A DNA stretch of 64,000 nt from an uncultured Rhodocyclaceae bacterium (lineage in GTDB: Bacteria; Pseudomonadota; Gammaproteobacteria; Burkholderiales; Rhodocyclaceae). The DNA lies in NCBI GenBank assembly GCA_964530115.1, contig CAZGYD010000143.1, positions 46-64,045 on the forward strand. Reading direction: 5' to 3'. Both the position numbers and the translations under genes were made by a program. How positions within the stretch are numbered: the stretch's first letter is position 1; each line of letters opens with the position of its first letter. This document shows positions 17,794-53,120 of this stretch, in pieces. The notes under the pieces are model-generated. The model searched no databases. It was not told the origin of the DNA and saw only the letters and a program-made list of their open reading frames with translations.

Positions 17794-17812
17794 GTGCGAC
17801 ACGTTGTCGCAC
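17794..17812. promoter_or_regulatory. Palindromic operator candidate, GTGCGACA-cgt-TGTCGCAC
   Basis: The arms are a perfect 8 bp. The site lies 62 nt upstream of the TonB-dependent receptor ATG (17732) and just upstream of a minus-strand TAGAAT -10-like hexamer (17767-17772). Confidence 0.6.
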
Positions 17813-17846
17813 GCGGGCGGAAATCCGCATCGGCGCTTGACGACGA

Positions 17847-18539
17847 TCAAGCGATCGAGAATGCCAGCGCCAACCGGCGAAGGCCGAGGACGATCAGCAC
17901 GCCCGCCGCCGCGAGATTGAGCCAGCGCGCGAGCCACGGCCGGCCGACGCGCAGCTCGCGGCCCAGACGTCCCGCGAGCGGCACGAGGACGAGCAGCGGC
18001 GTCATCGCCGCGCCGAGGCCGAAGGCGAGCCCGTACGCCGCGCCCTGCGCGAGGCCGCCGGCCTGCGCCGCGAGCGCGAGCAGCGAGGCGAGCGGCACGC
18101 AGGGCGTGAGCGACAGCGCGGCGCCGAGGAAGAGCGGCGGCAGGCCATCGCGCCGGCGATGGAAGCGGAGCGGTTGAGCCGCGCCAAGACTCAGCCGTGG
18201 TAACACGCCAGCGCATCGCCGGGGCGACCGCAAGAGCCACAGCCCGGCCGCGATACTGGCGCCGCCGATGGCGACGTTGCCCCAGGCGCCGCCCAAGGCT
18301 TGCGTCAGCCCGGCACCGACGCCGGCCGCGAGCGTCGCGAGCAGCGTGTAGGTGGCGATGCGACCGGCGAGGAAGATGCCCGTGTGCACGAAGGCTTCGC
18401 TCCGCCCGCTCGCGCGGCCGAGCGCCCAGGTGCCCATGAACGGCAGGCAGGTCACCGTGCAGGCCGTGAGCCCCATCGAGACGCCGAGGAGCCAGATGGT
18501 CGCCAGCGTCACCTGGCCGGCAGCGAGCGCGTCAGGCAT
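17847..18539 (-). CDS. DsbD_2/CcdA-like multi-pass membrane protein (cysteine pair in TM1)
   Basis: The 230-aa product has about 6 TM segments and LTACTVTCLPF near the N-terminus. Its start overlaps the stop of the upstream 4Fe-4S gene. The central loop contains a 23-nt motif copy. Confidence 0.6.
   Translation of the reverse strand: MPDALAAGQVTLATIWLLGVSMGLTACTVTCLPFMGTWALGRASGRSEAFVHTGIFLAGRIATYTLLATLAAGVGAGLTQALGGAWGNVAIGGASIAAGLWLLRSPRRCAGVLPRLSLGAAQPLRFHRRRDGLPPLFLGAALSLTPCVPLASLLALAAQAGGLAQGAAYGLAFGLGAAMTPLLVLVPLAGRLGRELRVGRPWLARWLNLAAAGVLIVLGLRRLALAFSIA
18187..18209 (-). repeat. 23-nt dispersed motif copy (22/23)
   Basis: The plus strand reads AGACTCAGCCGTGGTAACACGCC. It lies inside the DsbD_2-like gene and encodes GVLPRLSL in the central loop. 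Confidence 0.9.
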
Positions 18540-19593
18540 CGGCGGAGCGGACGTTCCCGCGCTTGACGAACCTGACCGGCTTCACCATGCCATCGGGCAG
18601 TTCGCCCTTGACGCGCCGCTTGTAGTAGTCGCGGCTCGACGAGAAGACGGCCCACGGCCCCCACTTGAGGCTGATGACGCCGTCCTGCGGACAATACTCG
18701 GCGCAGCGCCCGCAGAGCGTGCAGTCCTCGTTGTAGGCCTTGCGCCCGGCCTGCTGCGAGATCTCGGGGATGTCCATCGGGCAGGCGTCGGTGCAGATGT
18801 GGCACTTGCCGCACTGCTCGGCGCTCGGCTTGGCGAGCCGCATCGGCGAGAGCCGCTGGAACAGGGCGTTGAACGACAGCAGCGGACAGATGCGGCAGAA
18901 CGGCTGGCGGATGGCGAGCGCGCCGACGACGGTGAAGCCGACGAGCACGTTCGCGATCGCGCCGAGCGCGAAGCTCCAGCCGTCGCCGGTGCGCAGCGCG
19001 AGCTGCTCCGTGTCGCCCGTCAGTAGCGTCGTCGCGACCCGCGACGGACAGACGTCGCAGTAGGGATTGCCGAGCGAATGCGGCGTGACACCGAGGCCTG
19101 TCAAGAGCGGCAGCAGGAAGACCAGCGCGAGCAGCATCAGCCACTTGACCGGCCGCACGCGCCTTGTCTCGACGAGGTCGCCCTTCTGGAAGCGGCGCAG
19201 ATCGATGCCGAAGCGGCGGCCGACCCGGCCGATCCACTCCTGGATCGTGCCGAGCGGGCAGACCCAGCCGCAGAAGGCCTTGCCGATGACGAAGAAGAAG
19301 GCGAAGAAGCTCAGGAGCGTCATCAAGAGCGGCAGGACCATCTGGAAGGTGAGCTGCTGCGCGCGGACGATCGCCTCGCCGACGCGGTGATGCAGCTGGT
19401 GCTGCGTCGGCACGAGCACGCAGTAGGCGGCGTTCTGCTTGTCGTAGGCGCACGAGAGGGCCGGCAGCGCGCCGCTGATCTTCTCGGCCGAATAGTGGCC
19501 GACGATGCTGCTGCCATAGACGGTCAAAAGGAGCATCAAGAGCTGGACGACGAAGCGCAGCCGGCCCAGGGTGGGGAAAAGCGCCTTAAGCAT
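18532..19593 (-). CDS. NapH/MauN/CcoG-like membrane-bound 4Fe-4S protein
   Basis: The likely start MLKALFPTLG is at 19593. The product has TM segments and the Cys motifs CGWVCPLG, CDVCPSRV, CRICPL, CGKCHICTDACP and CTLCGRCAEYCP. Confidence 0.7.
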   Translation of the reverse strand: MLKALFPTLGRLRFVVQLLMLLLTVYGSSIVGHYSAEKISGALPALSCAYDKQNAAYCVLVPTQHQLHHRVGEAIVRAQQLTFQMVLPLLMTLLSFFAFFFVIGKAFCGWVCPLGTIQEWIGRVGRRFGIDLRRFQKGDLVETRRVRPVKWLMLLALVFLLPLLTGLGVTPHSLGNPYCDVCPSRVATTLLTGDTEQLALRTGDGWSFALGAIANVLVGFTVVGALAIRQPFCRICPLLSFNALFQRLSPMRLAKPSAEQCGKCHICTDACPMDIPEISQQAGRKAYNEDCTLCGRCAEYCPQDGVISLKWGPWAVFSSSRDYYKRRVKGELPDGMVKPVRFVKRGNVRSADA

Positions 19594-20470
19594 GGTTCGT
19601 CTCCGCAGACTCAGCCGTGGTGGCACGCCGGCGCAACAGGGGCAGCGCCGCGATCATGCCGACCAGCCCGAACGCCGCGCCCCAGCCGAGGCTGCGGTCG
19701 CGGTCCGGGTCCGGCGAGTAGCCGTAGTTGAAGGCCGTGAGGTAGCGCCGGCCGGAATCTTCCTTCTCGGTGGCAAGCACGAATTTCGCGCGGCGCGGGC
19801 CGCCGTGGCCGCCCGGCTCGCCTTCGCGCGGCGGGCGAAAGTCGCGGGGAAAGACGACCATCGCGTAGCCTTCGGCGTTCGTGAGCACGCTCGACCGGCT
19901 GCCGAACTCGGTTTCCATGACCAGCGGCTGGTTCGCGAGCGGCCTGCCCTGCCAGCGGACGAGGAAGCGCCACTTTTCGCTTTCCCGGTAGTTGCCGTGT
20001 TCCCTCGGCAGCGGATCGGGGATGATCTCGAGCTCGTGGCGCGATTGCGCGAGCAGCGCCGTGGGCGCCTCGCCGGGATTGCTGAAGTACCAGGCGGTGG
20101 AGGCCACGCGCACCTCGGCATCGGACTCCTGACGCGCGATCACCCAGTGGTAGTTGCCGACCCGCGGCGCGGCCGACTGGAACTTTGCGCCCTCGGGGCC
20201 GACGGGATAGGCGACACGCTTTCGCTCTTCTGGCCCGTCGGCCGCGAAGACGACGATCTCGCCGGCCTCGATGCCGACGGGCCGCACGGCGGCACTGGCG
20301 CGGTCGCCGCGCTGGCCCATGACCGGCACGAGCAGCGGCTGCTTCGTCCATTCGCGCGCGGCCGGCCGTGCGGGCGGCGGCGCGGCCTGCGCCATGGCCG
20401 CATGATCGTGCTGCGCGTGGGCGGGCGCTCCGCACAGGACGAGGAGCGCGATGAAACTCAGCCGTCGCAT
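19586..20470 (-). CDS. DUF4198-like (NikM-like) periplasmic protein with C-terminal TM anchor
   Basis: The 294-aa product has a signal peptide MRRLSFIALLVLCGAPAHA and a beta-rich body, and follows a TonB-dependent receptor gene. The family assignment is tentative. Confidence 0.5.
   Translation of the reverse strand: MRRLSFIALLVLCGAPAHAQHDHAAMAQAAPPPARPAAREWTKQPLLVPVMGQRGDRASAAVRPVGIEAGEIVVFAADGPEERKRVAYPVGPEGAKFQSAAPRVGNYHWVIARQESDAEVRVASTAWYFSNPGEAPTALLAQSRHELEIIPDPLPREHGNYRESEKWRFLVRWQGRPLANQPLVMETEFGSRSSVLTNAEGYAMVVFPRDFRPPREGEPGGHGGPRRAKFVLATEKEDSGRRYLTAFNYGYSPDPDRDRSLGWGAAFGLVGMIAALPLLRRRATTAESAETNHA
19607..19629 (-). repeat. 23-nt dispersed motif copy (CC variant, 22/23)
   Basis: The plus strand reads AGACTCAGCCGTGGTGGCACGCC. 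It encodes the C-terminal tail RRATTAES of the DUF4198-like gene, 14 nt upstream of the next gene's ATG. Confidence 0.9.
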
Positions 20471-20476
20471 GACGCC
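20454..20476 (-). repeat. 23-nt dispersed motif copy (20/23)
   Basis: The plus strand reads AAACTCAGCCGTCGCATGACGCC. It contains the ATG and first codons (MRRLSF) of the DUF4198-like gene. Confidence 0.8.
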
Positions 20477-20481
20477 GTCTC

Positions 20482-22566
20482 CTAGCGGAAATCGTAGCGG
20501 TAGGTCAGCATGACGCTGCGCGGCGCCGCGGCCGTGTAGGTGACCTTGCCGGCGGTGTCCTTCTTCACCTCGAAGGCGTAGCGATCATCGAACAGGTTGT
20601 CGGCGTTGAGCGTCAGCGAGTGCGGACCCCACTCGTAACCGACCGAGAGATTCGTCACCCATTCCCAGCCCGGATACTTCTCGGTGTTGGCGTTGTCTAG
20701 CCAGTATTCGCCCCAGCTGTTCGACGACAGCCGCACGCGCCAGCCGCCGCCCCGCCAGCCGACGAAGACGCCGTACTGGTGCTTCGGGATGAAGGGCAGC
20801 GCCTTGCCGGCACGGTCGACGTTGACCGTCGTGGTGCCGACGCGCACCGGCTCGGTGAAGTCTGTGTAGGTGTAGTCGGCGTAGCCGTAATGGCCGCCGA
20901 GTTCCCAGCCGCCGCCGAGCCCGAAGGCGCCGGCCAGCTCGAAGCCGAGCTTGCGGGTCTTGCCGGCGTTGAGATAGGTCGTCACGCCGCCGTTGCTCTG
21001 CTGGACGATCTCGTCGCGCACGTCGGTGCGATAGACGCTGGTGTCGAGCGTCCAGCCGGCACCGCGGCCCTTGAGACCGATCTCGTGGTTGCGCGCGACC
21101 GGTGCATCGAGCGATGGATTGGTCGAGATCTCCGAGCCCGAGGGAATCTGCCCGGCCTGCGCGACCATGGCGAAGACGTGGAACGCATCGCCGAGCCTGT
21201 AGCTCGCGGCGAGCTTCGGCGCCGGCAGGTTGAAGGTCTTTTCGAGCGAGGTGTCGCCGGCGCCGGCGACGTAGCGGCCGCTGGCGTAGTCGTAGCGCCA
21301 GATCTGGTGGTTGTTGTCCTTGAAACGGACGACGTCGTAGCGGCCGCCGACGTCGATGATCCAGCGGTCCGACGGCCGCCACGACTCCTGCAGATAGAGG
21401 CCGGTGAGGAGCGTCGACGAATCGTCGATCTCGGCGAGCGTGCCCTTCTCGTCCGAGCGCGTGGCGACGATGCGGCCGGCCACGAGCGTCACGTCGCGGT
21501 ACTGGTACTTGCGCGAATCGGGCTGGCGCTCCTGCCGCACGGTGATGCCGCCGACCAGCGAGCCGCCGGCATGCCGGTACTGGCCTTCGAGATCGGTCCC
21601 CAGGTTCCAGACCCAGCTGTTGCTCTCGTTGATCATGCCGGTGACCGGGTGATAGTGGTACCAGGTGTTGTAGTAGAGGCGCGGCTTGAAGGTGAAGTCG
21701 CCGCGCTGCATCTCGAGCTTGGAATTGAGGAACCAGACCTTCGAATAGCGGCCCGAATGCTTCCAGGCTTCGGAGGTGCCCGTCTGCTTGCCGGTCGCGA
21801 GGAACTGGTCGTAGAGCGTTCTGTCCATCACGCCCGGCAGCTGCACGTTGGCCTCGGCGTAGGACAGCTCGCTCTCGATGACATCGCCCGTTCCGAGGAT
21901 CAGGCCGTGCTTGAGCGACGTTTGCGTCGTGTCGAACTTGTTCCACCAGCGCCAGTCGTTGTCCATCCTGCGGTGGGTCGCGGTGATCGCGAGGGCCTGG
22001 TTGCCGGTGACGTTGCCGCCGTAGCGGAGGTGGTAGTTCTGCGTGTCCTCGTTGCCGTAGCCGATCCTGAGGTTGTTGGCGGTCTTGTCGAAAACGGACT
22101 TCGAGAAGATCTGGATCGCGCCGCCGGAACTGCCGGTGGCGAATAGGTTGCCCGGACCCTTGGCGACCTCGATGCGCTCGATGTCGAGCGTGTCGACGAA
22201 GTCGAGCCGCGTGAAGCTGTCCGGGTCGGTGAGCGGCACGCCGTCGCGCAGCACCATGATCTCGCGGATGCCGTAGGCCGCCTTGAGTCCCGCGCCGCGG
22301 ATGATCAGCCGCGCGTCGAAGCCGCCGTTCTTGCTGTCGATGAGCACGCCGGGGATTTCCTGCAGCGCCTCCTTGACGTTGAACATCTTCCGCTGGTCCA
22401 TCGTCTCCTTGCCGACGACGGAGATCGCCTGCGGCACTTCGGCGGTCGCGCGCGCCTCGCGCGTCGCCGTGACGCTGACATCCGACAGCACCTTCTCCTC
22501 GGCGCCTGCAGACAGTGTTGCGGCCGCGCCGATGAGGCCGGCCAGCGCTTTCCGCTTTCTCGACAC
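20482..22566 (-). CDS. TonB-dependent outer-membrane receptor
   Basis: The probable GTG start at 22566 (VSRKRKALAGLIGAAATLSAGA) is preceded by GGAGGAAAG. The plug motifs VSVTATRE and ALQEIPGV are present, and the C-terminus reads ...LTYRYDFR. Confidence 0.88.
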   Translation of the reverse strand: MSRKRKALAGLIGAAATLSAGAEEKVLSDVSVTATREARATAEVPQAISVVGKETMDQRKMFNVKEALQEIPGVLIDSKNGGFDARLIIRGAGLKAAYGIREIMVLRDGVPLTDPDSFTRLDFVDTLDIERIEVAKGPGNLFATGSSGGAIQIFSKSVFDKTANNLRIGYGNEDTQNYHLRYGGNVTGNQALAITATHRRMDNDWRWWNKFDTTQTSLKHGLILGTGDVIESELSYAEANVQLPGVMDRTLYDQFLATGKQTGTSEAWKHSGRYSKVWFLNSKLEMQRGDFTFKPRLYYNTWYHYHPVTGMINESNSWVWNLGTDLEGQYRHAGGSLVGGITVRQERQPDSRKYQYRDVTLVAGRIVATRSDEKGTLAEIDDSSTLLTGLYLQESWRPSDRWIIDVGGRYDVVRFKDNNHQIWRYDYASGRYVAGAGDTSLEKTFNLPAPKLAASYRLGDAFHVFAMVAQAGQIPSGSEISTNPSLDAPVARNHEIGLKGRGAGWTLDTSVYRTDVRDEIVQQSNGGVTTYLNAGKTRKLGFELAGAFGLGGGWELGGHYGYADYTYTDFTEPVRVGTTTVNVDRAGKALPFIPKHQYGVFVGWRGGGWRVRLSSNSWGEYWLDNANTEKYPGWEWVTNLSVGYEWGPHSLTLNADNLFDDRYAFEVKKDTAGKVTYTAAAPRSVMLTYRYDFR

Positions 22567-22643
22567 GATGTCTTTCCTCCCCTGAAACGAGCGGTGCGAG
22601 TCTAGGGCGGGGGACGATGCCGGGCCTGCGACCCGCGGTCGCA

Positions 22644-22660
22644 TGCGACAACGTGTCGCG
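22644..22660. promoter_or_regulatory. Palindromic operator candidate, TGCGACA-acg-TGTCGCG
   Basis: The core arms GCGACA/TGTCGC are 6 bp. The site lies 78 nt upstream of the second TonB-dependent receptor start (22566). Confidence 0.55.
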
Positions 22661-22802: not shown

Positions 22803-24827
22803 TCACTCGAACCGCAGCGGATCGGCGAGAAGCGGCGAATAGTCCGGGTTGTAGGTGCCGCCGGCGGTGTAGGGCTTGTCCTCGTCGATGAGGGTCTTCG
22901 CGTTGCCGAGACGGTAATCCATCGAGGTCGGGTCATCGAGATGCACCGGCCGCTCGGTGATCACCTCGCCGGTCTGCCAGGCGCTGCCGTCGAGGCGCGT
23001 GAAGGCCTGCCGCGGTGTGCGGAAGTAGCGGAAGGTGACCGGCGTTTCGGGGAACACGTCCTTGCCGAGCGTATAGCTTTGCGTGGCCACGACCTGGCGG
23101 TAGCGGCGCGCGGCCGCAAGCGCATCCTTCGCCGGCGGGAACAGCAGCGCCGCCTCCAAGCTGCCGTCGGCGCGCAGATGCGCGCGCCGCGCGGTGAATT
23201 CGCGCATCAGTCTCTGCCGCAGTGCCTGGCCGGCCTGAAACGCTTCGGCGCTCGAGGTGTCGAGTACGGCCGGCCAGGCGGCGCTGTAGCCGTCCGCCGG
23301 AACGATGCGCGTCGCGAAGTGGCGGTTCATCGCCTCGGGCATGTCGCCGTAGAGGCTCGCGCCGACGACCGTCTCGAGGAAGTGGCGTAATTCGCCGCGG
23401 TTCATGCGCCGGTTGATGGGGTCGCCCATCGTGGCGCGTCCCGGTGTCGCCTCGGCCGTCGCCGCGCGGTCGGCGCGGTAGCCGAGATAGTCCATCTCCT
23501 TCCAGCCGGCGGCACCCGCGAACTTTCGCGGCAGCGACCAGGTGCTGTCGACGGTGTTGCCGGTGCCGGACGTGAACGTGGGGAATTCGCTCCGGCGCAC
23601 GGCGCTGTGGCAGCCGAGGCATTGCATCAGCTCCTCGCGCTTCTGCGGCCGCAGCACGCCTTGGGCGTCCTCGATCCAGCCGGCGAGATACCAGCCGGCA
23701 CCGTTGTCGATCCAGCCCTGGGCGTCATTGCCGTAGATCGAACGGCCCTCCTCCTTGTCGCCCGGGCGGAACTGGGCGTGCCGGAAGTCCCACCATTTGT
23801 ACAGGTAGCGGATTTCCTTGACCCGGCGGGCGCGGGTGCCGGGGAAGGGGCTTGGCGCAGCATCGGTGCCGTCGGCGCCGACATCGACGTAGTGCAGCGG
23901 ATGGGCGAATTCGGTGCCGACCGGATAGACACCTTTCTCCAGCGGCACGTCCTTCGCGCCGCCGAGATAGGTCTTGCCGTCTTCCGCCGCGAGCCGGTTC
24001 TGGATGGCCTTTTCGAGCAGCTCGAGATTGGCGGCGTAGGTCGCGAGGTCGTAGCGGCCATCCTCGGTCTTCATGAAGGCCGAGGGCAGCCGAACGTAGA
24101 TGCCGGAGACCGAGCCCGTCATGGGCGTGAAGATGCCGTAGGGCATGAAGTTGATCGCGCGCCAGCCGGTGATCCAGCGATCGCCGTCCTTGAAGAACCC
24201 GTTGGCCTCGCGCGCCGAGCGCACGAAGCCGTCGGCCCCGGCCGGCAGGTCGGCCGGATCGAGGCCGGGAAAGAGCCGCCAGTCGCCCGTGCCGCCTTCC
24301 CAGCGGCGAGGATCACCCTTGCGCTTCGCAAAGGCGGGCGCCCAGTTGTCCTCGCGGATCCACGCGGCCATGTCCCAGGCCGCCGGGTCCTGGCCGAGCG
24401 CCCTGACGCGGGCGAGGAGCTTTTCTGGAAAGAGCGTGTTCTCCCAGCGGTTGAGGGTCGCGAGCGGCGCCGTGGTGTCGAGCGGCGCGAAGCTGTAGTC
24501 GGTCTGGAGGTTGCCGATGTTGTCGGCGAGTCCGGCCTGCGGGTTGTTGCCCATGCCCTCGAGATAAAGGCCGTTGTTGTGGCAGTACTGGCAGGCGTTC
24601 TGCGTGCCGGCCGAAGTCTCGATGTAGCACTGGGCGGGGACGTGGGCGTAGGGGTTGGAAAACGCGAGCGGGCTGACGCGGTCGCCGGCGAGCGAGGCGG
24701 GCGCAGCCGTCTCGCCCGCCTCGGCCACCGCGCCGCCCCCGCCGCTGCCGCAGCCGAACAGCGCGGCCGCGAGCCCGCCGGCGGCAGCGAGGACCGTCAT
24801 GGCGACGCCCGGAAATCGGAAACGCAT
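22803..24827 (-). CDS. Hypothetical lipoprotein with two CXXCH heme-c motifs
   Basis: The start MRFRFPGVAMTVLAAAGGLAAALFGCGSG is at 24827 with a lipobox. The motifs CQYCH and CLGCH are about 330 residues apart. I do not recognise the family. Confidence 0.6.
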   Translation of the reverse strand: MRFRFPGVAMTVLAAAGGLAAALFGCGSGGGGAVAEAGETAAPASLAGDRVSPLAFSNPYAHVPAQCYIETSAGTQNACQYCHNNGLYLEGMGNNPQAGLADNIGNLQTDYSFAPLDTTAPLATLNRWENTLFPEKLLARVRALGQDPAAWDMAAWIREDNWAPAFAKRKGDPRRWEGGTGDWRLFPGLDPADLPAGADGFVRSAREANGFFKDGDRWITGWRAINFMPYGIFTPMTGSVSGIYVRLPSAFMKTEDGRYDLATYAANLELLEKAIQNRLAAEDGKTYLGGAKDVPLEKGVYPVGTEFAHPLHYVDVGADGTDAAPSPFPGTRARRVKEIRYLYKWWDFRHAQFRPGDKEEGRSIYGNDAQGWIDNGAGWYLAGWIEDAQGVLRPQKREELMQCLGCHSAVRRSEFPTFTSGTGNTVDSTWSLPRKFAGAAGWKEMDYLGYRADRAATAEATPGRATMGDPINRRMNRGELRHFLETVVGASLYGDMPEAMNRHFATRIVPADGYSAAWPAVLDTSSAEAFQAGQALRQRLMREFTARRAHLRADGSLEAALLFPPAKDALAAARRYRQVVATQSYTLGKDVFPETPVTFRYFRTPRQAFTRLDGSAWQTGEVITERPVHLDDPTSMDYRLGNAKTLIDEDKPYTAGGTYNPDYSPLLADPLRFE

Positions 24828-24898
24828 CGAACTTCCCTCGCGTGAACGGGAAAAACCGCAGACCGGGGATGCCCGGCCTGCGGCGTTCTTCGGCAAGC

Positions 24899-26770
24899 TT
24901 ACTTGATGCCCGGCAGGCCGCCGATATAGCCGACTGGCGCGTGGAAGCGGTCGATCTTCGACAGCAGCTGCGCCTTGAGGTCCGCCGGCACGCTGCCGGG
25001 CAGATCGCCCCAGTGCTGGGAGTTGCTCATGATGTAGGCGTGGCCGTTGAGGTTGTCGATCACCTGCAGCCCCGTATGCTCGGCACCGGCGACGGCGCTG
25101 AGAACGCGCGTCAGCTTCTTCGTATCGACGTTGTAGGCCCAGAGGAAGTTGTTGACGTGCATGCCCGAGTCCTCACCGATGAAGAGCGTGCGCATCTTCT
25201 CCGAGAAGAACAGGTTGTCCGGGTTGGCGATCTTCTTCGGGTTGGCCGTGTTGCCCTGGGCGTCCTTGGCGATGTCCTCGCCGAGCAGCGCGGACTCGAC
25301 GTACATCTTGGTCGCCACATAATCCGAAGCGATCGCCTCGCCGCCGTTGGCCGTCTTCTGGCCGCCCGAAAGCTCGGCCGTGTAGGTCGCCCCGGCGGAC
25401 AGTTTCGCCAGCTTGATGTGGTCGGCCGGCTCGTTGGTCATGCTGGTCATGCTGTCGCGGATCGAGGACATGGCGATGTAGATCTTCTTGTCCTTGGCGT
25501 TGAAGGCGATGCCTTCCATCTTGGTGAATTCCGTCGTCGCGCCGACGATCGCGGCGTAGCGGCGGGTTTCGAGGAAGGCGGCGGCCTTCTCCATGCCCGG
25601 CTTCACCGCCAGGCACTCGTCGGCCGTCGACCCGGCGCGCACGCGCACGTGCGTCGCCGGGCAGGCACCGGCCGAGGGCGCCACGGCATCGAAGATGTCG
25701 GTGAAGGTGACGCCGCTGTCGATGATGGCCTTGATCTCGGCGTCGGTGGCGTGCCCCAGCTTGTACCAGGTCAGGTCGGCGGCGCCGCCGCCCGTCGCCG
25801 AAGTCTGGTTCCACTTCGCCGCGTAGAGCGTGCCGGCCGAAAGATCGCGCGCCTTGTCGGCGACGAACATCGTCATCAGGCCATGGGTGCCGTCATCGCC
25901 GAAGTAGGCGGTCTTCTCGTCGGCCAGGACCTTGGCCTGCTCCCAGGTACCGCGACCCATCGCGTAATGCTTGACGACGGTGGTCGTGCCGTCCTTGCCG
26001 ACCGTGACTTCGGGGATGAAGCCATAGTGGTAGGGGTTGGCGGTCCTGGTGTTCTTCCAGTAGAGCTCGGTCATCGCCTTGATGCCGGCGGTCGTGGTGC
26101 TATAGCCGCTGGTCAGCGGGTTGTATTGCAGGTCGTAGTCTTCTTCCGAGCCGAGGTGGGTGTTCCACGGCGTCTGCGAGCCGAAGCAGTTGATCCAAGT
26201 GCCATTGACGGAGGAGAAGTCGATCGGCCGCTGCGACTTGACCGAGAGCGCCCCGCCGTTACCCTGCGTCAGGCCGGTGAGCACCATGCCGGTCGGCGTG
26301 CGCGTATACCAGCCCGGCGTCGTCCAGGCTTCGGAACCGTCCGAGAGCAGCCAGTCATACTCGAAATGGGTGACGAGGAACAGATTGCCGTCGACCACGA
26401 GCAGGCTGTTGGCATCGGGGGTTTCCAAAACGACCGGCTTGCCGGCGGGATCCATCAGCGGCGTCATCGTGTGATCGTAGGCCTGCCCCGCCGGATTCGC
26501 GTTGCCGCCGACCTTGTCCTTGACACCAAACAACGTGTAGTAAGTCAGCGGATATTCCTTCTTGGCGCCGGTGTCGAAGGTCACCACTGCCTTGGCCATG
26601 ATCTTGGTCGTCGCCATGTCGTCGGCCGTCGTCGGCGTGTCGGAAGTCTCGACGAACTCGACCGACTTGATCTTCGCGTCCTCGATGTTGCCCGAGCCGC
26701 CGCAAGCAGCCGCGGCGGCACCGACGCAGAGCGCCGCGCCGACCGCGCGGGAAATCGCTGTCTTCTTCAT
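24899..26770 (-). CDS. PhoX-like (DUF839) beta-propeller lipoprotein
   Basis: The start MKKTAISRAVGAALCVGAAAAACGG is at 26770. The sequence WINCFGSQTPWNTHLGSEEDYD resembles the PhoX NCxGGxTPWGT..EE motif, and the C-terminus contains NPDNLFFSE...FIGEDSG. Confidence 0.6.
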   Translation of the reverse strand: MKKTAISRAVGAALCVGAAAAACGGSGNIEDAKIKSVEFVETSDTPTTADDMATTKIMAKAVVTFDTGAKKEYPLTYYTLFGVKDKVGGNANPAGQAYDHTMTPLMDPAGKPVVLETPDANSLLVVDGNLFLVTHFEYDWLLSDGSEAWTTPGWYTRTPTGMVLTGLTQGNGGALSVKSQRPIDFSSVNGTWINCFGSQTPWNTHLGSEEDYDLQYNPLTSGYSTTTAGIKAMTELYWKNTRTANPYHYGFIPEVTVGKDGTTTVVKHYAMGRGTWEQAKVLADEKTAYFGDDGTHGLMTMFVADKARDLSAGTLYAAKWNQTSATGGGAADLTWYKLGHATDAEIKAIIDSGVTFTDIFDAVAPSAGACPATHVRVRAGSTADECLAVKPGMEKAAAFLETRRYAAIVGATTEFTKMEGIAFNAKDKKIYIAMSSIRDSMTSMTNEPADHIKLAKLSAGATYTAELSGGQKTANGGEAIASDYVATKMYVESALLGEDIAKDAQGNTANPKKIANPDNLFFSEKMRTLFIGEDSGMHVNNFLWAYNVDTKKLTRVLSAVAGAEHTGLQVIDNLNGHAYIMSNSQHWGDLPGSVPADLKAQLLSKIDRFHAPVGYIGGLPGIK

Positions 26771-26906
26771 GGGGGTCTCCGTAGGAATGAAAATCGCGCG
26801 CCCGTAGGCTCGGCCGCGATTCTTGCCGCGGAGTATTTCAGGGCGTTGACGGACGGGTGACGCGCGAACCGTGGCGCCGAAGACGCCCCGCATCCGCCAG
26901 GGCCCC

Positions 26907-27323
26907 TCAGTGCGCCGCCGGCTCGGTGACGAAGGCGATCTTGACGATGCCGGCCCGCTGGGCCGCGGCCATCACTTCGGCGACACGCTCGTAGCGGGTG
27001 CCGCGGTCGGCGCGCAGGTGCAGCTCGGGACTGCCGGCGCGCGCGGCCTCGAGGTGCGCGGGCAAGGCGGCGGTGTCGATGGCCTCGCCGTTCCAAAAGA
27101 GCTGCCCCTGCGCATCGATGGCGACCTGGATCACCGCCGGCTTGTCGTCGAGCTTCGTCGCATCGACCCGCGGCAGGTCGATGGGCACCGCCTGATGGAA
27201 GAGCGGCGTGGTGATGATGAAGATCACCAAGAGCACGAGCATCACGTCGACGAGCGGCGTGGTGTTGATCTCGGCCATCGGCTGGACGGGACCGTCCTCG
27301 TTGAAGGAGCCGAAGGCCATCAT
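26907..27323 (-). CDS. exbD: Biopolymer transport protein ExbD/TolR
   Basis: The 138-aa product has INTTPLVDVMLVLLVIFIITTP, the typical single TM segment of the ExbD family. It overlaps the exbB stop. Confidence 0.88.
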   Translation of the reverse strand: MMAFGSFNEDGPVQPMAEINTTPLVDVMLVLLVIFIITTPLFHQAVPIDLPRVDATKLDDKPAVIQVAIDAQGQLFWNGEAIDTAALPAHLEAARAGSPELHLRADRGTRYERVAEVMAAAQRAGIVKIAFVTEPAAH

Positions 27324-28021
27324 GCCCTCCCGGCGCCAACGGGGCTCTTCGCGCCGGTGGTCAGGAAGGCGTGCAGGTCATGGGCGAAGCCGTCGAGCTG
27401 CACGAGGACGATGCGGTTGCCGCGCACCAGCGCGTTGTAGGCGAGCACCGCGGGGATGGCGACGAACAGGCCGCCCGCGGTCATGATCAGCGCCTCGCCG
27501 ACCGGCCCGGCCACCTTGTCGAGTACGACCTGCGTCGCGCCCGAGAGGCCGACCAGCGCGTGATAGATGCCCCAGACGGTGCCGAAGAGGCCGATGAACG
27601 GCGCGGTCGAACCGACCGAGGCGAGGAAGGTCAGCCCGCGCTCGATGCCAGCCTGGGTCTGGACGATCTGCGTGCGCAGCGCGCGGGTGACGAAGTCACT
27701 GTGATCGACGTCGGCACCAATGCCACGGGCGCCGTTACGGGCGAGCGACGCCTGCGCCTGCGCGCCGGCCACCGCCAGCCGGGCGAACACGCCGCTCCTG
27801 TCGGCGGCCCTCAACGCCTCGATGCCCTGGGAGAGACTTTCCGCGGACCAGAAGGCGTTCATCGCCCGCTCGTAGCAACGACTCGTCTTCCATTGCCAGC
27901 TGCCCCGGCCGAGGATCACCATCCAGGAGCCGACCGACAGCAGCAAGAGCAGGATGGCCACCGCGTGGGTGACGAAGTCGCCCTGCGACCAGAAGTGGGC
28001 GAGACCCAGTTTCGAAGGCAT
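27320..28021 (-). CDS. exbB: MotA/TolQ/ExbB proton-channel protein
   Basis: The start MPSKLGLAHFW is at 28021. The conserved sequence LASVGSTAPFIGLFGTVWGI...GEALIMTAGGLFVAIPAVLAYN is present. Confidence 0.88.
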   Translation of the reverse strand: MPSKLGLAHFWSQGDFVTHAVAILLLLLSVGSWMVILGRGSWQWKTSRCYERAMNAFWSAESLSQGIEALRAADRSGVFARLAVAGAQAQASLARNGARGIGADVDHSDFVTRALRTQIVQTQAGIERGLTFLASVGSTAPFIGLFGTVWGIYHALVGLSGATQVVLDKVAGPVGEALIMTAGGLFVAIPAVLAYNALVRGNRIVLVQLDGFAHDLHAFLTTGAKSPVGAGRA

Positions 28022-28031
28022 GCCAAGACTC

Positions 28032-28718
28032 CTACGACGCGTGCAATGAAAAGACGATGGGCACGGACACCCAGGATTCGATCGGCTCGTCGCCGCGGCG
28101 CGCGGGCACGAAGTGCCACTGCTCGACCGCGGCCCGGGCCGCCTCGTCGAGGCGCGCGAAGCCGCTCGACTGCCGGATCTCCACCGCCAGCGGCGTGCCA
28201 CCGCGGCTGACTTTCACGCGCAGGACGACCTTGCCCTCCTCGCCGAGCCGGCGCGAGGCGACGGGATAGGCCGGCTTGGGATTCGAGAGGTAATCGGCGT
28301 CGAAGCGGGCTTCGGTCACCGGCGGCGGCGCGGGCGGCGGCACGGCCTCGATCGGCGGTGGCGCCGGCGGTGCGGGCGGCTGGGGCGGCACGGTGAAGGC
28401 CGGGACGGCCAATGGCGTTTCCGCCGCCGCCAGCACCGGCAAAGGCGGCGGCTCCTGCGGCATGAGCTTGCGCACCGGCTGGGGCCGCGCGGGCGGCGGA
28501 GGCGGCATCGGCGCTTCCGCCTTCGGTTCCGGTTTGGACAGTTCCACCAGTCTGACCATGACTTCCGTCGCCGCCTGGCGGACCTCCGGTCGGGTCGCCA
28601 GCTCCGCGGCCAACCACAGGACGCCCAGGTGGGCAGCGAACACGATGGTGAAACGGAGCGCCCGCCGGCCGACGGGCTCGGTGGGCGCGAACGGGTCGAG
28701 CGGTGGCAGCGCGGACAT
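28032..28718 (-). CDS. tonB: Energy transducer TonB
   Basis: The start MSALPP is at 28718. The product has an N-terminal TM segment, a Pro-rich linker (PPPPPARPQP...PPAPPAPPP) and a C-terminal TonB domain (YPVASRRLGEEGKVVLRV...). Confidence 0.88.
   Translation of the reverse strand: MSALPPLDPFAPTEPVGRRALRFTIVFAAHLGVLWLAAELATRPEVRQAATEVMVRLVELSKPEPKAEAPMPPPPPARPQPVRKLMPQEPPPLPVLAAAETPLAVPAFTVPPQPPAPPAPPPIEAVPPPAPPPVTEARFDADYLSNPKPAYPVASRRLGEEGKVVLRVKVSRGGTPLAVEIRQSSGFARLDEAARAAVEQWHFVPARRGDEPIESWVSVPIVFSLHAS
28192..28214 (+). repeat. 23-nt dispersed motif copy (CC variant, 21/23)
   Basis: GGCGTGCCACCGCGGCTGACTTT. It lies inside the tonB C-terminal domain and encodes KVSRGGTPL. Confidence 0.7.
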
Positions 28719-28781
28719 CGTCACGACAGGTTTCCGTCCAGAGCAGGACCGGCATTGTCGGAGATTCCGCGCCTGCGCACC

Positions 28782-28797
28782 TGCGACAATTTGTCGC
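28782..28797. promoter_or_regulatory. Palindromic operator candidate, TGCGACA-att-TGTCGC
   Basis: The site lies in the divergent region, 64 nt from the tonB ATG (28718) and 61 nt from the first plus-strand ORF (28858). Confidence 0.55.
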
Positions 28798-28857
28798 TTC
28801 CCCGTGCCGCGCCAATGACTATGATTCACCGCAGAGATCGACAGAAAGGCCGCCGCC

Positions 28858-29052
28858 ATGGACACGCAAGCCAAGACCGATGCCGCGAGCCGGGAGACCG
28901 AAGGCTCCGAACTGCCGGCGCTCCTATTGGGGGCCGGATTCGCGCTGGCCTCGCTCATTCTCCTGCCTGCCGTCGCGCAACGTGTCGGCCTAGGCTCCAG
29001 CCTGACCATCGCCCTGCGCGGCGCCCTGATGCGAGCCGCCAACCGGGTCTGA
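28858..29052 (+). CDS. Hypothetical small membrane protein (speculative)
   Basis: The 64-aa ORF has one hydrophobic segment, LPALLLGAGFALASLILLPAV. It is the first ORF of the plus-strand unit divergent from tonB. Confidence 0.3.
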   Translation: MDTQAKTDAASRETEGSELPALLLGAGFALASLILLPAVAQRVGLGSSLTIALRGALMRAANRV

Positions 29053-29111
29053 GAAATCCACGGTAAAGTAGCTTCCCGCCGCACCATCGTGCCGGGGCGG
29101 CAAGCCAGTCG

Positions 29112-29456
29112 TTGCCGCCATCCATGAGTATCCGTCCTTCCGCGTCGGCTGCCGCAGTGCTCGGCCTGCTCGTCGCCGCCTTCGCCGCGACCTGGGTCGA
29201 TGCGCGCATGCTTGCCCTTGCGCGTGCCGCCGACCTCGAGGCGATGCGCGTGCTCGCCGGGCGCCTCGGGCTGACCGACATCGCCCTGTTCACGGAAGCG
29301 CGCTACACGCGCCACCCGAGCCAGGCCGATCTGCATTCGGCCTTCCAGGACCACCCGGTCGCACTCGAACACTTTCCCAGCGGCTCGCTGATCCTGCCGC
29401 GCGAGGCCGATCCCCGACGCGCCACACCCTGGAATATTGCGGAGGATCGCCCATGA
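29112..29456 (+). CDS. Hypothetical exported protein
   Basis: The 114-aa product has a signal-like N-terminus, SAAAVLGLLVAAFAA. Its stop overlaps the start of the ABC permease gene (ATGA). Confidence 0.45.
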   Translation: MPPSMSIRPSASAAAVLGLLVAAFAATWVDARMLALARAADLEAMRVLAGRLGLTDIALFTEARYTRHPSQADLHSAFQDHPVALEHFPSGSLILPREADPRRATPWNIAEDRP

Positions 29457-30589
29457 AGGCCTGGCTGGAAAAGCAGCGGCACCTGATCGATTTCATGCTC
29501 GCCTCCCTGGCGCGGCGGAAGATGAAGAACGCCGGGCTGCTCGCCGTGTTCACGCTGCTCGTCTTCGTGCTCGCCTCGGTGATGTTGTTCACACACGCGC
29601 TGCGCCACGAGGCCACCACCGTCCTCGCCGACGCGCCGGAAATCGTGCTCCAGCGGCTGGTCGCCGGGCGCCACGACCTGATCCCTCCGGGATACCTCGA
29701 CAGGATCGGCCGCATCCGCGGCGTGCAGAAGATCGAAGGCCGGCTCTGGGGCTACTACTACGACTCGGTGGTCAAGGCCAACTACACGTTCATGGTGCCG
29801 CCCGAGGGCGGCATCGAGAAGGGCACCATCGTCGTCGGCCCGGCGCTCGAGCGCGAGCGCGGCATCGCCGAAAACAACGGCATCTCGTTCCGCTCGTACA
29901 ACGGCGAGCTGTTTTCCTTCATCGTCGCCGGCGTGCTGCCGAAGAGTTCCGAACTCGTGAGCGCCGACCTGGTGCTCATGAACGAGGGGGACTTCCGCGC
30001 CTTCTTCACCTACCCCGAGGGGCATTACACCGACATCGCCCTCTCGATCGCCAACCCGCAGGAAGTCCGCAACGTCGCCCGGAAGCTGATGACCGCGCTG
30101 CCCGACTCGCGGCCGATCCTGCGTGAAGAGGTGGCGCGCACCTATCAGTCGATCTTCGACTGGCGCGAGGGCCTGATGCTCGCGCTGCTCTCCGCGGCGA
30201 TCCTCGCCTTCGCGATCCTCGCCTGGGAAAAGGCCTCCGGCCTCTCGGCCGAGGAAAAGCGCGAGATCGGCATCCTCAAGGCCGTCGGCTGGGAAACCGG
30301 CGACGTGATCAAAATGAAGCTCTGGGAGGGCGGGCTGATCTCGCTGACCGCCTTCCTCGCCGGCTATGTCGCCGCCTATGTCCAGGTCTTCCATTTCCAG
30401 GCGCCGCTGTTCGAGCACGTCCTTCGCGGCTGGTCGGTGATCTATCCGCACTTCGAACTGGTCCCGGTGATCGACGGCCTCCAGGTCGCGACGCTCTTTT
30501 TCTTCACGGTCTTCCCCTACATGGCCGCCGTGCTCGTGCCGATCTGGCGCGCCGCGGTAACCGACCCCGACGCGGTGATGAGAGCGTGA
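29453..30589 (+). CDS. ABC transporter permease, FtsX/MacB-like
   Basis: The 378-aa product has an N-terminal TM segment, a large periplasmic domain and three C-terminal TM segments (FtsX-like fold). An ABC ATPase gene follows. Confidence 0.75.
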   Translation: MKAWLEKQRHLIDFMLASLARRKMKNAGLLAVFTLLVFVLASVMLFTHALRHEATTVLADAPEIVLQRLVAGRHDLIPPGYLDRIGRIRGVQKIEGRLWGYYYDSVVKANYTFMVPPEGGIEKGTIVVGPALERERGIAENNGISFRSYNGELFSFIVAGVLPKSSELVSADLVLMNEGDFRAFFTYPEGHYTDIALSIANPQEVRNVARKLMTALPDSRPILREEVARTYQSIFDWREGLMLALLSAAILAFAILAWEKASGLSAEEKREIGILKAVGWETGDVIKMKLWEGGLISLTAFLAGYVAAYVQVFHFQAPLFEHVLRGWSVIYPHFELVPVIDGLQVATLFFFTVFPYMAAVLVPIWRAAVTDPDAVMRA

Positions 30590-30651
30590 TTCCTTTACCG
30601 GCGTTCCCTTCACGGGGAGGTCTTCGGCGGAACCGCCAAGATTGAACAGCG

Positions 30652-31323
30652 ATGATTGAACTGCGTGAGATTAGGAAAATTTTCAACCAGGGCCAGCACA
30701 ACGAGTATGCGGCGCTGTCGGGCATCACGCTCGCCATCGAGCCGCACCGGATCACGGCGCTGCGCGGCCCGAGCGGCTCGGGCAAGACGACGCTGCTGAC
30801 GATCATCGGCTGCCTGGCGAGGCCGACCAGCGGCCGGGTCAGCCTGCACGGCCGCGACATCTCCGGCCTGCCCGAGCGCTTCCTCACCGAGATCCGGCGC
30901 AGGACCTTCGGCTTCGTCTTCCAGCAGTTCAACCTGATCAAGGGCATGAGCGCGATCGAGAACGTGATGCTGCCCGCCTATCCGACCGGCCGGCCGCACC
31001 GGGAACTGAAGCGGAAGGCCGAGTCGCTGCTCGAGCGGCTGAAGCTCGCCCACCGCCGCGATGCCCGCGTCGAATGGCTCTCCGGCGGTGAGCAGCAGCG
31101 CGTCGCCATCGCCCGCGCGCTGATCAACGATCCCGAGGTGCTGATCGCGGACGAACCGACCGCCAACCTCGACACGGCGCTGGCCAAAGAATTCCTGGCG
31201 CTTCTCGAAGGCTTCCGCGAGGAAGGCCGCACCGTGATCCTGACGAGCCACGACCCCCTGGTCGTCGAATCGCCAGCCGTGCACCGCGTGGTGAGCATGC
31301 GCGACGGAAGGATCGTCGAATGA
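30652..31323 (+). CDS. ABC transporter ATP-binding protein (LolD/MacB-type)
   Basis: Walker A GPSGSGKTT, the Q-loop, the signature LSGGEQQR and Walker B LIADEP are present. Length is 223 aa. Confidence 0.88.
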   Translation: MIELREIRKIFNQGQHNEYAALSGITLAIEPHRITALRGPSGSGKTTLLTIIGCLARPTSGRVSLHGRDISGLPERFLTEIRRRTFGFVFQQFNLIKGMSAIENVMLPAYPTGRPHRELKRKAESLLERLKLAHRRDARVEWLSGGEQQRVAIARALINDPEVLIADEPTANLDTALAKEFLALLEGFREEGRTVILTSHDPLVVESPAVHRVVSMRDGRIVE

Positions 31324-31345
31324 AACTCAGCCGTCGTAACACGCC
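31323..31345 (-). repeat. 23-nt dispersed motif copy
   Basis: The plus strand reads AAACTCAGCCGTCGTAACACGCC. It starts at the last base of the ABC ATPase stop codon. Confidence 0.95.
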
Positions 31346-31423
31346 AGCCAGAACGCCGGATCCGCCATACCCTGCGCGGGGCCCCTCCCCCGCGAAGGGG
31401 AAGCCGGGAAGAGGCGGGGCATC

Positions 31424-32425: not shown

Positions 32426-32426
32426 C

Positions 32427-33477: not shown

Positions 33478-33487
33478 GGAACCCGAC

Positions 33488-38616: not shown

Positions 38617-38631
38617 GCGACCGATTGTCGC
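38617..38631. promoter_or_regulatory. Palindromic operator candidate (one mismatch), GCGACC-gat-TGTCGC
   Basis: The site lies 33 nt upstream of the DsbD_2-family gene start (38664). It overlaps a second palindrome, GTCGCGCGAC, so the assignment is weaker. Confidence 0.4.
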
Positions 38632-38663
38632 GGCCGGACGGCGACCGGCCGCGCGGCCCTGCT

Positions 38664-52686: not shown

Positions 52687-52950
52687 GGGGCTTCCTTCCG
52701 GATGAAGATGACGAGCGCCGGACCGGGGGCGGCCGGCGAACCACGGTCAGAGCGGGAAGGAAACGCGGGGCGGGGCGGTCTTGGGCAGGGCCACGACGCC
52801 GAAGCGCAGCCAGCCGGTCGCGGCGTCGGGGTCGATGCCGGCGACGAGGTGGCGGAATCGTTGCGCAAGGCGGTCGGCGCTCATGGAGGCGCACAGTCTA
52901 GCCGTCCGGCCGGCGGGGTCAAGCGCGATGGTGCGCGGCTGCCAGCCGCT

Positions 52951-52973
52951 GGCGCATTGCGACGGCTGACCAG
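52951..52973 (+). repeat. Degenerate relative of the 23-nt motif (16/23), adjacent to a REP dimer
   Basis: GGCGCATTGCGACGGCTGACCAG. It is intergenic. A similar degenerate version, GTTACGACGACTGGCCAG, occurs at 37748-37765, also next to a REP dimer. Confidence 0.4.
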
Positions 52974-53025
52974 CCCGCCACCCGGCGGGCGCAGGACGCC
53001 ACGGAGTGGCGGTCCCGAGCAACGC

Positions 53026-53093
53026 GAGGGATGGGGCGAAGCCCCACAAGTGGCAGTCCCGGGCGCAGGACGGAATGGGGCTGCGCCCCACAG
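53026..53093 (+). repeat. REP-like hairpin dimer
   Basis: GAGGGATGGGGCGAAGCCCCAC and GGAATGGGGCTGCGCCCCACAG. The first unit is near-identical to 37811-37832, with a single T/A difference in the loop. Confidence 0.75.
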
Positions 53094-53101
53094 TTCGCCG
53101 G

Positions 53102-53120
53102 CTGCGACAAGATGTCGCAG
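53102..53120. promoter_or_regulatory. Palindromic operator candidate, CTGCGACA-aga-TGTCGCAG
   Basis: The arms are a perfect 8 bp. The site lies 68 nt upstream of the Tat-NosL-like gene ATG (53188). Confidence 0.6.

Follow-up and report, generated by a model that had tools for sequence, protein, structure and literature searches.

Palindromes upstream of probable copper-handling genes in a Rhodocyclaceae contig as predicted RegA-family binding sites

The RegB/RegA redox system of Rhodobacter capsulatus, together with PrrB/PrrA of R. sphaeroides and RegS/RegR of Bradyrhizobium japonicum, is among the closest described parallels to the element treated here, an inverted repeat GCGACA-N3-TGTCGC (also written TGCGAC-N5-GTCGCA; hereafter the box) that recurs in a 64-kb stretch of DNA with 68% GC from an uncultured Rhodocyclaceae bacterium (the window). 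These systems have the half-sites and the 5-bp spacer in common with the box, and share with the proteins encoded beside it in other genomes the recognition helix (PDB 1UMQ), the kinase motif GGxxNPF, autoregulation, and links to respiratory oxidases, denitrification and the Sco-type copper chaperone SenC/PrrC. The published sites comprise the RegR box GNGRCRTTNNGNCGC, the PrrA site YSCGGC(5)GWCRMA and the RegA site SSGNVRDNHYSNCSS (PMC5506826), and alphaproteobacterial sites of this type differ from the box in being degenerate and variable in spacing and position. For SpdR, which with its kinase SpdS forms the RegB/RegA orthologue of Caulobacter crescentus, the best site by electrophoretic mobility shift assay (EMSA) is CTGCGAC-N5-GTCGCAG (PMC4830024), the same sequence that is found in the window, and most genes that have the motif are activated (PMC6530869). 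Caulobacter differs in having a handful of near-perfect sites (cspD, CC0517 and others) that are tied to stationary phase, and the cited SpdR literature describes neither a copper/TonB regulon nor a fixed -42 geometry.

Outside the alphaproteobacteria, the RegBA homologue RoxS/RoxR of Pseudomonas is active in the absence of haem-copper oxidases and switches on CIO (cio), an oxidase without copper (PMC5436846); control of copper-uptake receptors by RoxR was not found in the literature searched. The gammaproteobacterial RegBA of Methylomonas sp. DH-1 (PMC13274454, 2026) comes with binding and expression data by which RegA directly upregulates a TonB-dependent receptor, tonB-exbBD and feo. Two of these three target classes match the window; the differences are that its authors interpret the response as iron uptake set off by methanol-induced NADH stress, that the text searched gives no motif, and that the partner genes found here (OprC-like receptor, PCuAC, Sco, NosL, Cu-ATPase) point to copper. 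The theme of outer-membrane copper import for respiratory oxidases is shared with the transporters OprC/NosA, CrtA and TccA (PMC12914433, PMC12617631). The regulators of copper detoxification, CueR, CopRS and CsoR, are well known, and how copper import is switched on in proteobacteria is much less clear. In Bordetella, the operon of the copper receptor crtA differs from the units described here in being under post-transcriptional control by the CruR upstream open reading frame (ORF), and no transcriptional control by RegA is described there.

Boxes of the window and published RegA-family sites

A first-pass annotation of this DNA had drawn attention to five palindromes, all of which were recovered, four as exact copies and one as a near-exact copy. 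Their positions are as follows.

17794-17812: site 1, GTGCGACACGTTGTCGCAC
17795..17811, minus strand: box 1, the perfect palindrome TGCGACAACGTGTCGCA, in the promoter of TonB-dependent receptor 1
22644-22660: site 2, TGCGACAACGTGTCGCG, the distal box of a tandem pair
22627..22660, minus strand: tandem boxes offset by 17 bp, read on the minus strand as proximal TGCGACCGCGGGTCGCA (22627-22643) and distal CGCGACACGTTGTCGCA (22644-22660)
28782-28797: site 3, TGCGACAATTTGTCGC
28782..28798, no strand assigned: single box TGCGACAATTTGTCGCT in the divergent tonB / ABC intergenic region
38617-38631: site 4, GCGACCGATTGTCGC, with 1 mismatch
38601..38632, minus strand: tandem weak boxes, proximal at 38601-38617 (3 mismatches) and distal at 38616-38632 (the site of the first-pass annotation)
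53102-53120: site 5, CTGCGACAAGATGTCGCAG
53103..53119, plus strand: box TGCGACAAGATGTCGCA, which with its flanks reads CTGCGAC-N5-GTCGCAG

All five sites lie, as had been claimed, in intergenic DNA upstream of start codons, at distances of 61 nt (17794), 74 nt (22644), 59 nt (28782; 63 nt on the tonB side), 44 nt (38617) and 67 nt (53102), and four of them match TGCGAC-N5-GTCGC exactly. At two sites a weaker second copy, absent from the earlier annotation, stands 15-17 bp from the main box (22627-22643 and 38601-38617).

The copy at 53102-53120 is identical, letter for letter, to the SpdR optimum, and the other sites come within 1-2 positions of it; the window boxes also agree with the PrrA 3' half-site GWCRMA and with the fixed positions of the RegR box except TT. 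The palindrome had been ascribed to an unidentified regulator and said to match no familiar operator, a view that does not survive this comparison, given that the box is the published SpdR site, fits the RegR and PrrA sites and recurs upstream of regB/regA in other genomes. On the strength of this identity, of the physical linkage to regBA, of the conservation of the box and of its fixed promoter geometry, we consider the palindromes to be, probably, binding sites of a response regulator of the RegA/PrrA/ActR/RegR/SpdR/RoxR family encoded outside the window. The likeness to CopY/BlaI-type operators that had also been mentioned falls away, as the spacer is N3, the half-sites differ from TACA-N2-TGTA, and a gene of the BlaI/CopY type is absent from the window and is not a recurrent feature of related loci.

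Further operators were considered and rejected, namely those of Fur/Zur, CueR/MerR, CsoR, NsrR/IscR, FNR/CRP and CooA, and likewise those of the LacI family, the LysR T-N11-A motif, LuxR boxes, CusR/CopR boxes and the mycobacterial BlaI site (TACGAC-N5-GTCGTA). Most were dismissed because of their architecture (AT-rich, an even-length spacer or another half-site), and all of these comparisons were overtaken by the linkage to regBA. A literature search for the two heptamers returned primers and unrelated sequences only.

With at most one mismatch, GCGACANNNTGTCGC matches six times in the window against 0.55 expected, an excess of about 11-fold, and this count was reached in none of 100 dinucleotide-preserving shuffles of the window. 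The sixth match, at 20211, is intragenic, without promoter geometry, and probably due to chance. That the palindromes as a whole might be chance matches, or a structural or repetitive element of the repetitive extragenic palindromic (REP) or terminator type without regulatory role, could be argued from the GC-richness of the window and from a separate family of REP-like hairpins near some sites. The stem, though, is just 7 bp long and is followed by no T-run, while the box is kept at orthologous promoters across families as its N3 and flanks vary, and it stands at a fixed distance from a -10 element on contigs ranging from 33 to 72% GC. The shuffles, the conservation, the -10 spacing and the linkage to regBA effectively refute this explanation, whose probability we put next to nil.

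Conservation and promoter geometry of the box

A search with receptor 2, the TonB-dependent receptor downstream of the 22644 site, restricted to one genome per species, gave 55 loci with 62-79% protein identity in Rhodocyclaceae, Azonexus/Dechloromonas, Azoarcus, Methyloversatilis, Thiobacillus, Gallionellaceae, Competibacter and others. The gene order receptor / 294-aa protein / NapH-like / DsbD_2 is kept in about 40 of them. Phylogenetic footprinting, which the first-pass annotation had recommended, showed the palindrome (at most one mismatch) ahead of the receptor gene, at 55-120 nt from its start, in about 36 of the 55 loci, which belong to several groups (Rhodocyclaceae, Thiobacillus, Competibacter and Gallionellaceae). 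Since GCGACA and TGTCGC are near invariant across these loci while the three central bases and the flanks vary, the pattern is that of a protein-binding site, not of inherited sequence. In many of the related promoters there are two or three boxes, at offsets of 15 or 17 bp, with pairs in L004, L005, L008, L012, L013 and L019.

At all five promoters of the window, a -10-like hexamer begins 30-32 nt from the box centre, as listed here.

17767..17772, minus strand: -10-like TAGAAT, 31 nt from the centre of box 17795
22599..22604, minus strand: -10-like TAGACT, 31 nt from the centre of the proximal box 22627
28820..28825, plus strand: -10-like TATGAT, 30 nt from the centre of box 28782, facing the ABC/TlpA/ATPase unit
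28754..28759, minus strand: weaker -10-like GACAAT, 31 nt from the centre of box 28782, facing tonB
38572..38577, minus strand: -10-like TAGCAT, 32 nt from the centre of the proximal box 38601, facing the Sel1-repeat gene
53142..53147, plus strand: -10-like TAAACT, 31 nt from the centre of box 53103

The observation that the box at 17794 abuts the -35 position upstream of TAGAAT is thus confirmed, and the same layout extends to all five promoters rather than to 17794 alone. In related loci, 34 of 74 sites have TANNNT at 31-32 nt from the box centre, with secondary peaks at 48 and 63 nt that represent the upstream members of tandem arrays, and other distances are near empty; the hexamer consensus across these sites is TAGAAT. 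No recognisable -35-like signal was found in the 22 bp between box and hexamer of the related sites. Promoters on both sides of a single box, as at 28782, recur in the metagenome loci L059, L099, L114 and L115. Because the spacing from box to -10 is fixed and no -35 can be recognised, the box, centred near -42 over the missing -35, suggests an activator layout of the class-II type.

The same overlap with the -35 position would also suit an operator of repression, at which RegA or another dimer would block RNA polymerase until derepression occurred, for example under copper limitation; tandem boxes could form a repressive array, and RoxSR does repress coxB in Pseudomonas (PMC5436846). Against this, promoters lacking a recognisable -35 should be weak without an activator, the 31-32 nt spacing to the -10 varies as little as in promoters of class-II activators, and two divergent promoters are served by a single box equidistant from both. 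The SpdR-box genes of Caulobacter are mostly activated (PMC6530869), and Methylomonas RegA upregulates its receptor and tonB targets (PMC13274454). We regard repression as quite improbable, and activation by a RegA-type protein as the reading to be preferred.

Linkage of the box to regB and regA

An unbiased scan of metagenome sequences with TGCGACANNNTGTCGCA followed by 22-24 nt and then TANNNT yielded at least 120 stretches (716 kb, 33-72% GC). Homologues of regB and/or regA lie on 17 of the 120 stretches listed, against about 0.2 expected by chance if the operon is taken to be about 1.8 kb long and the genome to measure several megabases, and in these stretches the box is almost always about 100 bp upstream of regB. 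Of 59 first ORFs examined behind the box, 4 encode RegB-type kinases. The first-pass annotation had advised a search for a regulator gene carrying its own site, as expected under autoregulation, and such a gene was indeed found in other genomes: the box precedes regB in these 17 stretches and also in L031, L053 and L179-L182. Altogether regBA stands beside the box in 17 + 7 occurrences, with the box in its own promoter, and no other regulator gene recurs beside the box in the 55 related loci or the 120 metagenome stretches listed.

Among the 55 related loci, tblastn with the DNA-binding domain of PrrA (PDB 1UMQ) detected RegA homologues in two, and no regulator gene conserved beside the receptor operon was found there except regBA in Competibacteraceae. 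In the Competibacter loci L031, L053 and L026, regBA is divergent from the receptor orthologues and the boxes lie in the shared intergenic DNA; in Competibacter denitrificans, this DNA, between regB-regA and the receptor operon, measures 150 bp and contains a single box, with TACAAT 32 nt downstream of it. In L179-L182, which are one Thiobacillus genome and three contigs related to it, regBA is divergent from an operon of receptor and PCuAC, with two boxes in between, one directed to the receptor (TAACAT, at the conserved distance) and one to regB (TACAAT, with the start codon 7 nt later). At the metagenome locus L119, regBA is likewise divergent from the adjoining gene, an orthologue of receptor 1, and a 17-mer identical to TGCGACAACGTGTCGCA stands upstream of the receptor. 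In L053 (Candidatus Competibacter sp.), two small minus-strand genes at 16725-17600, which may represent an insertion of toxin-antitoxin-like type, separate regB from a perfect box-plus-TACAAT promoter, and a second, weaker box TGCGGCATATCGCCGCA is placed directly before regB with the same spacing to TATACT.

The box-linked RegA homologues are proteins of 178-185 aa that consist of a receiver domain (PF00072) and a Fis-type helix-turn-helix (PF02954, HTH_8) with no sigma-54 AAA+ domain, and their JGI annotation is RegA. The recognition helix MHRRTLQR, which in the family belongs to the near-invariant stretch NMHRRTLQR(I/K)LAKR, is present in 21 of 22 of them (L128 has LHRRTLQR) and is identical in PrrA (PDB 1UMQ) and in the Burkholderia regulator 3RQI; this invariance would explain why the DNA motif stays constant across differing base composition. 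The adjacent kinases combine 6TM_PilS, HisKA and HATPase_c domains in Pfam and carry the RegB quinone-site motif GGxxNPF in the forms GGASNPF (L031, L053, L026) and GGYANPF (L119). A cysteine that might correspond to the redox-active one downstream of the RegB H-box is present in the Competibacter kinases (VCKTIL, NTCKVIL) and is not at the equivalent place in L119, as judged by eye and not from an alignment with R. capsulatus RegB. The best full-length NCBIfam matches are the ActR/PrrA/RegA (NF033791) and ActS/PrrB/RegB (NF033792) models, and the box-linked proteins are, by their sequence matches, family-level homologues of the RoxR/RegA type, outside the curated and mainly alphaproteobacterial equivalog.

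About half of the exact box-plus-hexamer matches fall on contigs of 33-50% GC, where the central triplet is AT-rich (AATAT, AATTT) and the chance occurrence of a GC-rich 14-base palindrome is very unlikely. The box thus appears, to judge from these matches, to be used well beyond the high-GC Betaproteobacteria, and RegA homologues were found on contigs of 41-42% GC as well (L078, L116). In RegA homology searches, the best 120 matches came from Competibacteraceae, Thiobacillaceae and unnamed Betaproteobacteria, with Rhodocyclaceae not among them.

Several points weigh against the RegA-family assignment. The RegA and RegB homologues score 186.5 and 227.5 bits, below the equivalog cut-offs of 250 (NF033791) and 350 (NF033792), and L058, a regBA locus found via its RegA homologue, has no good box. 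By tblastn the 64-kb window contains neither regA nor regB, whose presence in the source genome we infer. The distribution of RegBA among Rhodocyclaceae is patchy: Accumulibacter has it, reportedly by lateral acquisition, and two Dechloromonas metagenome-assembled genomes reportedly lack it (PMC11361876); the box is nevertheless present in Dechloromonas and Azonexus loci, among them those of Dechloromonas agitata DSM 13637 and Azonexus sp. IMCC34839. The alphaproteobacterial RegA sites are degenerate and variably placed as against the rigid layout found here, and in Caulobacter the motif GCGNC-N5-GNCGC was credited to SciP in one study (PMC4287350).

Most of these points could be taken to favour a different regulator, for instance a dedicated copper-responsive factor encoded elsewhere, for which the likeness to RegA sites would reflect a shared or overlapping site: the window itself encodes no regulator, the Dechloromonas loci keep the box while regA/regB are reported absent from two genomes, the boxes far exceed classical RegA sites in conservation and have a more rigid placement, and GCGNC-N5-GNCGC was credited to SciP in Caulobacter. 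SciP is not known outside the alphaproteobacteria. Opposed to this alternative are the 17 + 7 occurrences of regBA beside the box and the recurrence there of no other regulator gene, the identity of the motif with an EMSA-defined RegA-family site, and the invariant recognition helix, which accounts for the constancy of the motif. Some other factor is in our opinion unlikely, and a RegA-family protein remains the preferred candidate. As the first-pass annotation had stated, no plausible DNA-binding partner is encoded in the window, where tblastn detected no RegA homologue; the remainder of the window comprises housekeeping genes, a nitrate-assimilation cluster, an ANTAR response regulator and rpoH.

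Two further families encoded near related receptor operons, hybrid histidine kinases (cluster 5) and a DUF4154/YfiR-like protein (cluster 16), were set aside as regulators, being without a DNA-binding domain. The hybrid kinases (CHASE/PAS/HisKA/REC, about 900 aa) adjoin the receptor operon in L003, L005, L008, L009, L013, L015-L017, L024, L048 and L056, and in loci of the Dechloromonas/Azonexus type the DUF4154/YfiR-like protein recurs together with a second, divergent receptor.

Genes behind the box and a possible link to copper

The identities proposed for the genes flanking the boxes were upheld by Pfam, together with NCBIfam and reading of the ORFs, and are as follows.

15468..17732, minus strand: TonB-dependent receptor 1 (Pfam Plug plus barrel)
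17847..22569, minus strand: receptor 2 operon (Pfam, NCBIfam)
20482-22569, minus strand: TonB-dependent receptor 2
19586-20470, minus strand: 294-aa protein without family match, receptor 2 operon
18532-19626, minus strand: NapH-like Fer4_5 membrane ferredoxin, receptor 2 operon
17847-18539, minus strand: DsbD_2, receptor 2 operon
22803..28718, minus strand: tonB unit (Pfam)
28032-28718, 27320-28201 and 26907-27323, minus strand: tonB, exbB and exbD
24899-26893, minus strand: PhoX-like protein, tonB unit, followed at 22803-24896 by a protein of no assigned family
28858..36895, plus strand: ABC/TlpA/Cu-ATPase unit (Pfam, NCBIfam)
28858-29052, plus strand: small 64-aa ORF at the head of this unit, directly after the box promoter
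29112-29456, plus strand: cluster-37 conserved protein, 114 aa, with the motif FTEARYTRHP..DLQSAFQDHP
29453-30589 and 30652-31323, plus strand: FtsX-like permease and ABC ATPase
31424-32425 and 33109-33477, plus strand: proteins of no assigned family, same unit
32427-32915, 33685-36534 and 36554-36895, plus strand: TlpA-like thioredoxin, Cu-type P1B ATPase and cytochrome c
37891-38520, minus strand: Sel1-repeat protein (Pfam Sel1)
38676-39371 and 39440-40054, plus strand: DsbD_2 and COX3/NorE-like protein (Pfam)
53188..54293, plus strand: NosL pair (Pfam NosL), a Tat-signal NosL-like protein (53188-53817) and NosL (53817-54293)

The idea of a single regulon, tied together by the palindrome and made up of both receptors, tonB-exbBD, the NosL pair and the ABC/TlpA/Cu-ATPase unit, finds support here. 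It is doubtful whether the remaining site, 38617, belongs to the DsbD_2/NorE-like unit, to which it had been assigned: because the conserved spacing from box to -10 points to the divergent Sel1-repeat gene, the 38601/38616 pair is likely to target that gene, and control of the DsbD_2/NorE-like unit is uncertain, with its nearest -10-like element (TATGCT) 40 nt from the centre of the distal box and off the conserved spacing. Genes of the Sel1 type are found again in two related neighbourhoods, L003 and L028.

Receptor 1 has OprC copper transporters as its sole relatives in the PDB, a likeness that is confined to the plug region, and shares 61% identity along its entire length with the Thiobacillus receptor whose gene lies in one operon with PCuAC and is divergent from regBA. 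It is probably, from these similarities, an OprC-like copper receptor. Among PDB entries, receptor 2 comes nearest to YncD and to PqqU, which transports PQQ (E about 1e-36), rather than to a receptor for copper or siderophores, and NCBIfam gave no subfamily assignment for the receptors and the unnamed proteins.

The composition of the wider regulon was read from the 83 first ORFs downstream of box-plus-hexamer sites in the 120 metagenome stretches listed. They include 14 TonB-dependent receptors, five Phenol_MetA_deg outer-membrane proteins, four RegB-type kinases, two each of PCuAC, Sco/SenC and NosL, and one each of MbnP, a YcnI-like DUF1775 protein, a YtkA-like protein, PepSY_TM, cytochrome bd subunit I (the oxidase type of CIO, which offers a parallel to RoxR), ExbB and TonB. 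Orthologues of the window genes stand beside boxes as well: receptor 1 in L067, L072, L119, L156 and L169, the FtsX permease in L091, L107, L108, L138 and L168, TonB/ExbB in L080 and L096, and NosL, downstream of a box, in L082, L164 and L173, with L164 sharing the 17-mer TGCGACAAGATGTCGCA upstream of its NosL orthologue. As a side observation, a Phenol_MetA_deg gene also lies directly downstream of regA in L058 (3346-3360), and the family is absent from the window.

By this gene content, the regulon most probably comprises outer-membrane uptake and periplasmic and membrane handling of copper, supplying haem-copper oxidases and N2O reductase. It consists mostly of TonB-dependent uptake and copper chaperones, not of photosynthesis, nitrogen fixation and carbon fixation as in the alphaproteobacterial systems. 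Copper starvation reportedly induces CIO via RoxSR in P. aeruginosa, according to Frangipani et al. 2008. TonB-dependent copper transporters for respiratory oxidases were recently described, and their operons also contain PCuAC, Sco, PepSY_TM and ExbBD/TonB (PMC12914433, PMC12617631). Fer4 proteins of the CcoG type are cited as cupric reductases (PMC13038864), and R. capsulatus RegA is reported to bind copper (PMC9147068). Two points speak for caution about the metal: copper as the substrate is indicated by homology (OprC, PCuAC, Sco, NosL, Cu-ATPase), and the Methylomonas authors take their receptor and TonB targets to serve iron uptake (PMC13274454).

Some features of the window stand beside this regulon. 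The 64-aa ORF and the cluster-37 protein head the ABC/TlpA/ATPase unit, and upstream-ORF copper control of the CruR type is known in Bordetella copper receptor operons. A nitrate-assimilation cluster at 40419-50346 (HPP-family protein, NasA-like nitrate reductase, NirB-like nitrite reductase, ABC transporter, NasT-like ANTAR response regulator) lies amid the box-bearing units and is itself without a box, and a radical-SAM gene (51514-52686) lies directly upstream of the NosL promoter. The REP-like hairpin family, GGGGC-NNN-GCCCCAC, gives nine strand-matches in the window against 1.5 expected, with copies at 14641-14655, about 22783-22800, 37816-37858 and 53031-53091. Copies are found directly upstream of the boxes at 22644 and 53103 and on the 3' side of the Sel1-repeat gene, and the stretches 22690-22812 and 52955-53100 are 69% identical in alignment.

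The scheme that we infer for the source organism, from binding and its activating sign to the copper substrate and the physiological signal, would run as follows. An over-reduced quinone pool or poor flux through the oxidases, brought about for example by low oxygen or by haem-copper oxidases or N2O reductase short of copper, would lead the redox-sensing kinase RegB to phosphorylate its partner RegA, a receiver domain joined to a Fis-type helix-turn-helix. A RegA dimer would sit on TGCGAC-N5-GTCGCA, centred about 42 bp before the transcription start and over the missing -35, and would recruit RNA polymerase to sigma-70 promoters that offer only a TAGAAT-like -10; at some promoters one or two further boxes 15-17 bp upstream may extend the site, and a single box could serve two divergent promoters. 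RegA would thereby raise regBA itself, in positive feedback, together with the genes for copper uptake and delivery, namely an uptake arm of OprC-like and YncD/PqqU-like receptors with a dedicated TonB-ExbBD, and a handling arm of NapH-like reductase, DsbD_2, ABC system, TlpA, Cu-ATPase and NosL.

A wider proposal, which we put forward tentatively as a possibility that falls short of being probable, is that RegB/RegA may act as a sensor of copper need in many beta- and gammaproteobacteria, activating a dedicated chain of uptake and delivery from a rigid -42 box. The chain would comprise OprC-like and PqqU-like receptors with a private TonB-ExbBD, the NapH-like reductase and DsbD_2, the ABC system with TlpA and the Cu-ATPase, and PCuAC, Sco and NosL. 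The shortage of copper might be read indirectly, as an over-reduced quinone pool when electrons flow poorly through haem-copper oxidases and N2O reductase, or directly through the reported binding of copper by RegA.

A site of the RegA type is in itself known; what these results suggest to be of remaining interest is the rigid class-II-like layout, the breadth of occurrence of the box and the link between redox sensing and copper acquisition. A sharply defined, fixed-position box has been assigned to the RegB/RegA redox system, and the same box precedes TonB-dependent receptors, TonB-ExbBD, PCuAC, Sco, NosL and regBA in many uncultured beta- and gammaproteobacteria. What appeared to be an orphan regulon has thus become one with a probable regulator, of the RegA family. 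The pattern TGCGACA-N3-TGTCGCA, followed by 22-24 nt and TANNNT, can serve as a search pattern for RegA regulons and for their prediction in denitrifiers of wastewater and groundwater, where copper availability limits N2O reduction. The model couples the supply of copper to the redox state of the respiratory chain and, if RegB/RegA did prove to sense the need for copper, would fill a long-standing gap in our understanding of how Gram-negative bacteria control the acquisition of copper as opposed to its detoxification.

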